This document shows, one piece after another, positions 7,096 to 7,786 of a stretch of 10,419 bases of DNA (positions are counted from its first letter, which is position 1; each line of letters starts with the position of its first letter). A program made the position numbers and the translations under genes. The notes beneath the pieces are model-generated. The model saw only the letters and a program-made list of their open reading frames with translations, made no database searches and was not told the DNA's origin. The stretch is from the NCBI RefSeq assembly GCF_003334385.1, contig NZ_QOWN01000068.1, one strand, 5' to 3'. Origin of the DNA: Escherichia coli (GTDB taxonomy: Bacteria > Pseudomonadota > Gammaproteobacteria > Enterobacterales > Enterobacteriaceae).

Positions 7096-7521
7096 TTAGT
7101 GCATCACCACAGCATTCCCTGCCGGGCCGCCGCGATTCATCTGGTCATACAAAACAACCGCTGACGCAACAAAATCATCGACATCCTTCACCAGCCGATC
7201 CCTCCGTTCGACGATCTCACGGTAATATTCAGAACTGTGGCTGCGCATACGGGCCACTAGCAAAGGCGGCATCGCCTTTTCGATCGCCGGTAACAGAGCC
7301 TGCATTTTTTCAACAGCATCAGGGGTGTCTTTATCCAGCCAACGGAAAATTTTCTGGGTATTACGGGCCAGGGCTTCCGGATGGCTGTCGTCATACAGTT
7401 CCGGGAACGTCATTCCCAGCTCGAAATACGCTTTGGTAATTTTCGCAGCCGGCACTTTTTCGCCGTCCGGATGCGCCCAGACATTCATCGCCATGCGGAT
7501 GTGTTCATGCTTGATTTTCAT
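7096..7521 (-). CDS. YdaT-like protein (CII-position regulator, 141 aa)
   Basis: N-terminus MKIKHEHI matches the recalled start of Rac YdaT; located between the Cro-like and O-like genes; 17-nt overlap with the upstream Cro-like gene. Confidence 0.6.
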   Translation of the reverse strand: MKIKHEHIRMAMNVWAHPDGEKVPAAKITKAYFELGMTFPELYDDSHPEALARNTQKIFRWLDKDTPDAVEKMQALLPAIEKAMPPLLVARMRSHSSEYYREIVERRDRLVKDVDDFVASAVVLYDQMNRGGPAGNAVVMH

Positions 7522-7786
7522 GAATCAAGCTCCTAGAAAGTGGTTGTGTTAACGTTTTGGTATCTTCCAGCTCGGGCCAAATATTCATCCAATCAAAAGG
7601 CCTTAGTTGCTGACGTGTAACTTCACCATTACTGGCTCGCTCAATAAGGACACATAACGATGCCCCTAACACTTGACCTTTACTCAATGCCTTTCTTAGA
7701 TAACCGATGCTGGTACCACACTCGCATGCAAACATACGCTGTTCATCTGACGAAAGAGAATTGAGAAATATTCTTAATTCTTCCAT
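7505..7786 (-). CDS. Cro-like HTH regulator of the YdaS family (93 aa)
   Basis: Motif CVLIERASNGEVTRQQLRPFDWMNIWPEL resembles recalled YdaS (AIERATRGEV..LRPDIDW); strong AAGGAG Shine-Dalgarno 6 nt upstream; divergent from the repressor gene. Confidence 0.75.
   Translation of the reverse strand: MEELRIFLNSLSSDEQRMFACECGTSIGYLRKALSKGQVLGASLCVLIERASNGEVTRQQLRPFDWMNIWPELEDTKTLTQPLSRSLIHENQA

Follow-up and report, generated by a model that had tools for sequence, protein, structure and literature searches.

Do the two small overlapping genes in the Cro and CII positions of this locus encode a toxin-antitoxin pair, as their family names would have it, or the regulators of a prophage immunity switch? 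The window, by which we mean the whole stretch of 10,419 nucleotides of Escherichia coli DNA that was analysed, covers the early region of a lambdoid prophage of Escherichia. It is highly likely that the pair represents the rightward early regulators of the immunity switch, namely a Cro-like YdaS and a CII-like YdaT, with YdaT acting on PRE.

The overlapping pair and its divergent repressor

Positions 7096-7786 are the exact span of two overlapping minus-strand reading frames of 93 and 141 amino acids, which share 17 nt and are each preceded by a good Shine-Dalgarno sequence. According to the reading frames and profile matches, the order on the minus strand is cro-like gene, ydaT, O-like replication gene and DnaC-like loader, so that ydaT is flanked by the cro-type gene and the gene for the replication initiator. 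The repressor gene is divergent from the cro-like gene, with a gap of 100 bp (7787-7886) between the two, and is followed by DUF1391/ydfB/ydfC-type genes. The genes discussed here are:

7505-7786, minus strand: cro-position gene at the head of the rightward (PR-type) operon, encoding a YdaS-family HTH protein of 93 aa (reading frame, Pfam and homology to CP-933P YdaS)
7096-7521, minus strand: ydaT, a CII analogue of 141 aa with a POU-like HTH and a C-terminal tetramerisation helix (identity to PDB 8BT1, Pfam, PHROG)
6111-7088, minus strand: O-like replication initiator (PHROG 391, E 2.2e-115)
6104-5364, minus strand: DnaC-like helicase loader (reading frame list and profile matches)
7887-8306, plus strand: repressor in the CI position, 139 aa, PaaR2-like (hhalign, BLASTP, AlphaFold model)

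The 1.5-kb core of this region (6900-8400) was found in 813 of the 5426 complete E. coli genomes at a coverage of at least 80% and with up to 99.8% identity. ST131 strains are among the carriers, for example JJ1886, where RefSeq labels the two proteins “transcriptional regulator” and “toxin YdaT family protein”. For the entire window, the best match among the same 5426 genomes has 95.3% identity. Among isolated phages the 1.5-kb region has no close relative, and ydaT alone finds matches there, at 83-87%. No literature was found under the RefSeq protein accessions.

The 93-aa protein gives a partial match to the Pfam family YdaS_toxin (PF15943; residues 35-66 against model positions 30-62 of 65, E 1.1e-5) and a match to PHROG 35 (E 4.8e-23). 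It is 36% identical to the YdaS of prophage CP-933P over 78 aa (E 5e-17), and a search of the PDB retrieves the corresponding structure (8C7K, E 1.2e-10; the YdaS structures are 8C7K and 8CO2). Pairwise BLAST aligned it to K-12 YdaS over 28 aa only. Over the whole HTH domain of a multiple alignment of 11 sequences (7 relatives, the query, CP-933P YdaS and K-12 YdaS) the identity amounts to 34% with CP-933P YdaS and 27% with K-12 YdaS, and nine of the 11 match PF15943 at an E-value of 0.001 or below. CP-933P YdaS is known to footprint on OR and to repress both PR and PRM (PMC8630535). On these similarities the 93-aa protein is accepted as a divergent member of the YdaS family and a presumed Cro analogue. 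Two other candidates for a homologue were rejected, DicC at an E-value of 0.054 and P22 Cro for lack of any alignment.

The assignment of YdaT is more direct. Residues 2-141 are 100% identical to PDB entry 8BT1, the YdaT of CP-933P from E. coli O157:H7, and a second PDB match, 3C4R, falls in the 84% class. The recognition-helix residues R60-W61 (CP-933P numbering) are present in the stretch ...KIFRWLDK..., and helix 6 has the same hydrophobic residues as in 8BT1. Profile searches return Pfam YdaT_toxin (PF06254, E 3.9e-10) and PHROG 163, “CII-like transcriptional activator” (E 3.2e-47). K-12 Rac YdaT aligns over its full length with 31% identity (144 columns, E 6e-15).

The CP-933P protein consists of a POU-like HTH domain and a C-terminal four-helix bundle through which it forms a tetramer, and this tetramer is able to hold two DNA duplexes (Prolic-Kalinsek 2023, PMC9986795). 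It has no toxicity and activates a leftward PRE-type promoter (Jurenas 2021, PMC8630535). For Rac YdaT, Wons 2025 (PMC11879457) describes a box-dependent activation of racR, a cross-activation by CP-933P YdaT, and a toxicity that is traced to mis-regulation of rcsA. YdaT is therefore a CII analogue, that is, a tetrameric DNA-binding activator, as shown for the identical protein elsewhere. By analogy, the YdaT of the window would activate a leftward PRE-type promoter and thereby raise the expression of the repressor.

A sequence-only reading had placed a YdaS/YdaT-like pair in the Cro/CII positions, and Pfam, PHROG, the PDB, the homologies to CP-933P and K-12 and the gene order all bear this out. 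The check that it had named as a possible refutation, alignment to the two families without significant similarity, was run and gave a similarity far beyond chance.

The same reading had described the repressor as DicA-like rather than RacR-like. The second half of this statement stands, since homology to RacR is absent by BLASTP (E 2.3) and by hhalign (probability 0.1%). The first half fits only the C-terminal half of the protein, because the homology to DicA (hhalign 96.5%) is confined to residues 64-137, whereas the homology to PaaR2 is full-length (hhalign 97.8%, E 1.1e-12, residues 1-129 against PaaR2 1-113; BLASTP E 7e-9). The N-domain is not DicA-like, and the NCBIfam DicA model (NF007257) scores 24.5 bits against a cut-off of 101, over residues 86-136 only.

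In the AlphaFold model of the repressor (pLDDT 84.9), residues 3-63 form an HTH domain and residues 92-138 a helical hairpin, with a disordered linker (77-86) between them; the N-domain is an XRE-type HTH and the C-domain is helical, of the DicA/PaaR2 type. Its best fold matches in the PDB are SPC32H Rep (5D50, E 2.4e-3) and then XRE-type HTH proteins. The first ~75 residues share 64-82% identity with the N-domains of LexA/S24-type CI repressors, relatives of 220-240 aa from Salmonella, Klebsiella, Edwardsiella and Pantoea as well as the cI of phage mEp043. An S24 peptidase domain is absent from the 139-aa protein, and a Pfam search with it gave no match. A PDB sequence search returned Z-alpha domains (E ~0.08), which we judged to be chance, and otherwise nothing useful. 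Some database copies of the repressor carry frameshifts. The 139-aa protein is best described as a CI analogue of the PaaR2 type whose C-terminal domain is DicA-type and which has no autocleavage domain.

Predicted operators and promoters, and the exchangeable cassette

The intergenic regions on both sides of the repressor gene contain the following candidate elements:

7816-7866, no strand: OR-type operator cluster with three TACC-N4-GGTA sites at 7816-7827, 7840-7851 (one mismatch) and 7855-7866 (motif scan)
7812-7839, minus strand: PR-like promoter for cro-ydaT-O, -35 TTGACT, 16-nt spacer, -10 TATTCT (consensus scan; function predicted)
7853-7880, plus strand: PRM-like promoter, -35 TTTACC, 16-nt spacer, -10 TATTAT (consensus scan; function predicted)
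8349-8389, plus strand: OL-type operators at 8349-8360 and 8374-8385 with a weak PL-like promoter, left-hand edge of the cassette (motif scan and sequence reading)
8361-8366 and 8384-8389, plus strand: -35 TTTACT and -10 TATCCT of the PL-like promoter, separated by a 17-nt spacer (8 of 12 consensus positions, our own reading)

TACC-N4-GGTA with at most one mismatch occurs seven times in the window against an expectation of 1.86, and none of 200 shuffled sequences reaches seven. Five of the seven copies lie in the two intergenic clusters (starting at 7816, 7840 and 7855, and at 8349 and 8374). Operators 1 and 2 overlap the PR-like promoter. Both divergent promoters, PR-like and PRM-like, overlap OR sites, and the PL-like element overlaps the OL sites. 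The promoter scan had a threshold of 9 of 12 consensus positions, below which the PL-like and PRE-like elements score. A Salmonella prophage whose CI N-domain and Cro are 75% and 61% identical to those of the window has the same motif at equivalent OR and OL positions, with other bases in the spacer. We infer that the TACC-N4-GGTA sites are the operators of the 93-aa and 139-aa proteins.

The -10 element of the PRM-like promoter, TATTAT, ends 7 nt before the repressor ATG, and a Shine-Dalgarno sequence is absent upstream of 7887. The predicted start of the PRM transcript is the A of this ATG, at 7887. These two features together lead us to predict a leaderless repressor mRNA, and suggest a likeness to lambda cI and to paaR2, whose mRNA is leaderless (PMC8630535). 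Because no Shine-Dalgarno sequence precedes the repressor ATG, a transcript from PRE may be poorly translated.

According to an exact-sequence look-up, the identical YdaT protein adjoins three different repressor/Cro cassettes:

Cassette 1: PaaR2-PaaA2-ParE2 with a 100-aa YdaS (CP-933P type)
Cassette 2: a 238-aa HTH+S24 CI with a 71-aa P22-type Cro
Cassette 3: the 139-aa/93-aa pair of the window

When the loci are compared from a common anchor, the DNA identity to the window rises from a random level to 99-100%, and the step coincides exactly with the left half-site of the YdaT box (described below). The other edge of homology lies at 8396-8403 (BLASTN), just past OL and the -10 of the PL-like promoter; here homology resumes in CP-933P, the P22Cro-type cassette, Rac and phage Tritos. 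These sharp breaks delimit an exchangeable cassette of approximately 7529-8395 that comprises cro, OR, the repressor and OL. Rac DNA shares a 30-bp island at the box with the window (7498-7527, BLASTN). The O-like gene has 96.6-99.6% DNA identity by blastn (98-100% in ungapped bins) to loci with other immunity cassettes, and ydaT and the O-like gene travel together as one conserved segment, a replication module separate from the immunity cassette.

Hybrids of lambda and imm434 offer the textbook precedent, with cII outside the immunity substitution. The modular shuffling of immunity regions that had been proposed for this locus is thus confirmed at the level of sequence by one YdaT beside three cassettes and by the sharp break at the ydaT start, although it is of a classical kind. 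The cassette is a new immunity allele of a known type of switch, next to a YdaT that has been characterised before. It occurs in ~15% of complete E. coli genomes and, with its particular repressor, Cro and operators, should confer an immunity specificity of its own.

The YdaT box and a predicted PRE

CP-933P YdaT binds the sequence 5'-TTGATT-N6-AATCAA-3', called OM, at the ydaS/ydaT junction, as determined by DNase I footprinting and ITC (PMC9986795). In Rac, the start codon of ydaT lies within an equivalent box, ATGATTCATGAAAATCAA (Wons 2025, PMC11879457). The window has this site and, next to it, a candidate promoter core:

7511-7528, no strand: YdaT box (the OM site of CP-933P), perfect inverted repeat TTGATT-N6-AATCAA, right-hand edge of the cassette (exact match, footprinted for the identical protein)
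7547-7555, plus strand: predicted PRE core, extended -10 TGtTAACGT, 21 nt after the box, antisense through cro (from comparative spacing)

Boxes of the YdaT family have the form [T/A]TGATT-N6-AATCAA and overlap the ydaT start codon; the whole window has one exact box. It lies across the ydaT start codon in such a way that the ATG is inside the spacer, the left half-site falls between the Shine-Dalgarno sequence and the ATG, and the repeat reaches codon 4. The last 17 nt of the cro-like gene, which overlap ydaT, run through it. A search for a second box in the window found one site with two mismatches (9462-9479), which is within chance expectation. The box occupies the same position in CP-933P, in the P22Cro-type cassette and in Rac.

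If the PRE transcript starts near 7562, as predicted, the centre of the box is near -42.5 and overlaps the -35 region. The -10 candidate TAACGT itself agrees with the consensus at three of six positions, and its assignment comes from a comparison across the YdaT family. We scanned IMG/VR for the box and obtained 125 sites with 22 upstream sequence types, 15 of which precede a genuine ydaT. In every one of the 15, the cro antisense strand shows the hexamer TANNNT at a distance of 20-22 nt from the box, and in nine a TGn extends it; the seven types in which the box occurs by chance lack such a hexamer. The spacers fall into six families with 10-48% ungapped identity to one another, each with TANNNT, and the joint probability of this by chance is ~6e-9. 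The hexamer reads TACAAT in CP-933P and TATGAT in Rac (20 nt from the box), and the P22-Cro type has TGcTATCCT. The conserved spacing suggests a box-proximal PRE of class-II type with the geometry of lambda CII at PRE.

The published CP-933P reporter points in the same direction. From the primer sequences given, we located the PRE933P fragment (~120 bp), which includes 18 nt beyond the box towards ydaT and ~85 nt towards ydaS. Since it reaches only ~85 nt past the box and responds to YdaT, the promoter should be close to the box. The positions published for PRE conflict with each other. PMC9986795 states that OM covers the transcription start, which is hard to square with a box-proximal PRE; PMC11879457 puts the Rac reverse promoter, PracR4, ~190 bp from the box.

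The switch that we favor builds on the predicted operators, on putative PR, PRM and PL promoters, on a presumed leaderless repressor mRNA and on a PRE core whose exact position is likewise predicted. The 93-aa Cro analogue would be made from the PR-like promoter and would compete with the 139-aa repressor for binding to TACC-N4-GGTA in OR and OL. A YdaT tetramer would bind the box over its own start codon and from this position would activate a weak PRE-type promoter that points leftward and lies 21 nt away. The resulting transcript would cross cro in antisense direction, continue into the repressor gene and favor the establishment or maintenance of repression.

Could YdaT instead act from a distance, on a reverse promoter deep within cro? 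Such an arrangement, with PracR4 in Rac as the model, is the interpretation that the authors give to their Rac reporter data (PMC11879457), and a tetramer with room for two DNA duplexes (PMC9986795) is compatible with it. We consider it unlikely. The CP-933P fragment responds to YdaT although it ends ~85 nt past the box, the TANNNT hexamer is found at 20-22 nt in every cro type including Rac itself (TATGAT), and the promoter scan detects no consensus plus-strand promoter inside the cro gene of the window. Moreover, no experiment with YdaT and a knocked-out PracR4 was found in the part of PMC11879457 available to us.

It is decidedly less probable that the box serves mainly for negative autoregulation, with YdaT as a roadblock to PR transcription into ydaT-O. 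The box does lie between the Shine-Dalgarno sequence and codon 4 of ydaT, and the crystallography paper terms YdaT a “repressor” (PMC9986795), but Rac YdaT at the box left ydaT-lacZ unchanged and strongly raised racR (PMC11879457), and the conserved -10 on the opposite strand favors activation. Activation and autoregulation by YdaT are not mutually exclusive.

Inert remnants of a decayed cryptic prophage are a very improbable explanation for the two genes. CP-933P, with the identical ydaT, is indeed a defective prophage (PMC9986795), and the frameshifted copies of the repressor in the databases would agree with decay. However, the reading frames, ribosome-binding sites, operators and box of the window are all intact, hundreds of complete E. 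coli genomes keep the 1.5-kb region at 99% or above, the CP-933P circuit is bistable and functional (PMC8630535), and an isolated phage, Tritos, has an equal layout.

A type II toxin-antitoxin module, in which YdaT or YdaS would be the toxin and its partner the antitoxin, is so improbable as to be hardly credible: against the Pfam names YdaS_toxin and YdaT_toxin, which go back to a prediction of 2007 (Jobling 2018), the RefSeq label “toxin YdaT family protein”, and the toxicity of over-expressed Rac homologues reported in PMC5700377, PMC5700373 and PMC11879457, stand the identical YdaT, a non-toxic transcription activator (PMC8630535) with the structure of a DNA-binding HTH tetramer (PMC9986795), the explanation of Rac YdaT toxicity through rcsA (PMC11879457), the lack of any PADLOC match for the three proteins and of any NCBIfam match for the pair, and a context that is a classical immunity region (Jobling 2018). 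For the YdaT allele of the window, this question is largely settled against a toxin by its 100% identity to the non-toxic CP-933P activator. The description of the pair's role as contested is accordingly outdated, as the same YdaT protein has been addressed by experiment (PMC8630535, PMC9986795), as has that of Rac (PMC11879457).

The main value of our analysis is therefore corrective: the protein labelled “toxin YdaT family protein” in thousands of E. coli genomes is a regulator of lysogeny of the CII type, and the window carries the very allele for which this role was shown. Returning to the box-proximal PRE, we give about even odds to a broader proposal. PRE would be a class-II promoter split across the module boundary, with the YdaT site and ydaT on the conserved replication side and with each exchangeable cro cassette contributing its own, often extended, -10 at 20-22 nt from the box; the box would double as a recombination joint, so that new chimeras rebuild PRE, and the repressor would combine a DNA-binding domain known from SOS-cleavable CI repressors with a non-cleavable DicA/PaaR2 tail. 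The spacing between box and -10 offers a simple, testable model of activation by YdaT and would show how lambdoid mosaics can stay functional after cassette swaps. If the proposal is true, the model of activation from 190 bp in Rac would need revising. An S24-type DNA-binding domain on a non-cleavable tail would imply a changed route of induction, possibly antirepressor control.

Comparison with known switches

The closest system is CP-933P (Sp12) of E. coli O157:H7, where YdaT and the box are identical to those of the window and the ydaT-O-like DNA is 96.6% identical (blastn). Its YdaS is 36% identical to the Cro protein of the window, and its PaaR2 is a full-length homologue of the repressor. 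Both loci have a divergent OR of ~100 bp, a second set of operators past the repressor operon and a leaderless repressor mRNA, which is predicted in the window. CP-933P differs in the paaA2-parE2 toxin-antitoxin pair that follows the repressor, a pair that the window is without. The N-domain of the window repressor belongs to another subfamily than that of PaaR2, one common to S24-type CIs, and the window Cro, at 93 aa, extends 17 nt into ydaT. The operators are repeats of the GTTTAGTAA type in CP-933P versus predicted TACC-N4-GGTA sites in the window, and because of these different motifs the two cassettes should be heteroimmune.

The RacR/YdaS/YdaT region of K-12 Rac has the same gene order, with a YdaT of 31% identity. 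Its box is one base off that of the window and likewise lies over the ydaT ATG, and the first eight codons (MKIKHEHI) are conserved. RacR is unrelated to the window repressor, and the DNA homology amounts to the 30-bp island around the box. Rac YdaT is toxic through rcsA (PMC11879457), whereas the window allele is that of CP-933P, reported as non-toxic.

Qin shares other parts. The C-terminus of DicA is homologous to the C-terminal half of the window repressor, the downstream leftward operon resembles that of the window (ydfA/B/C-type genes, DicF), and YdfX is a truncated YdaT-like protein. On the other hand, the repressor N-domain of the window is not DicA-like and its Cro protein is not DicC-like. 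Phage Tritos, which has been isolated as a phage, has the layout of the window with a short CI of 39% identity.

Lambda provides the general scheme. Circuit logic and gene order are like those of the window, with three operators over divergent promoters and a leaderless repressor mRNA, which for the window is a prediction. The lambda activator, a tetramer, binds across the -35 of a promoter that lies antisense at the cro/cII junction, and the window has a predicted equivalent. As cII lies outside the exchangeable immunity cassette of lambda, so does ydaT in the window; the two switches differ in that the window repressor is without the S24 autocleavage domain.

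Domain composition of the repressor

The repressor in the CI position (7887-8306) is a domain mosaic. Its N-terminal, DNA-binding domain is 64-82% identical to the N-domains of SOS-cleavable S24/LexA-type CI proteins from other Enterobacterales and from phage mEp043, while its C-terminal half is of the DicA/PaaR2 type and holds no peptidase domain. The top fold match was SPC32H Rep, a repressor controlled by an antirepressor. Taken together, the S24-type N-domain, the peptidase-less C-terminal half and this fold match suggest that the route of induction has been changed and the operator specificity kept. 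An alternative-frame ORF (7897-8157) also lies within the window, and its peptide opens some of the database homologues of the repressor (P0010 and P0021), which means that some E. coli genomes carry frameshifted copies of it.

Edges of the immunity cassette and the tail of Cro

The immunity cassette (7529-8395) has a sharp boundary on both sides, and its flanks are short conserved stretches that are common even to Rac. The two edges are:

7511-7528, YdaT box
8396-8403, predicted start of the PL-like transcript

The C-terminus of the 93-aa Cro (...SLIHENQA, 7505-7521) is a read-through of the YdaT box into ydaT. The tail IHENQA/T was found again on unrelated Cro bodies in four comparison loci (L041, L043, L033 and L089), and in other cassettes Cro stops at the ATGA overlap with the tail ...DS. 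Both kinds of tail are by-products of a common junction sequence.

Other prophage loci in the window

Three further loci were annotated:

2894-3219, hok/sok type I toxin-antitoxin locus, with a Hok-family ORF (2894-3106, (-)) and sok (3044-3219, (-); Rfam match, 120.5 bits)
3287-3973, gene for the epoxyqueuosine reductase QueH (Pfam, E 1.2e-65), inside the nin-like region of the prophage
10104-10155, the antisense sRNA DicF, part of the leftward operon (full-length Rfam match, 77 bits)

The queH gene, which serves tRNA modification, is cargo of the phage and is also present in comparison locus L013. DicF likewise lies in the leftward operon in Qin and in phage Tritos.

The slot after the repressor gene

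Toxin-antitoxin pairs seem to have lodged repeatedly in the slot that follows the repressor gene. In the window this slot is empty of such a pair. In L014, a Salmonella relative with an S24-type CI, a ParE-toxin pair (3733-4298) directly follows the repressor gene, echoing the placement of paaA2-parE2 in CP-933P.
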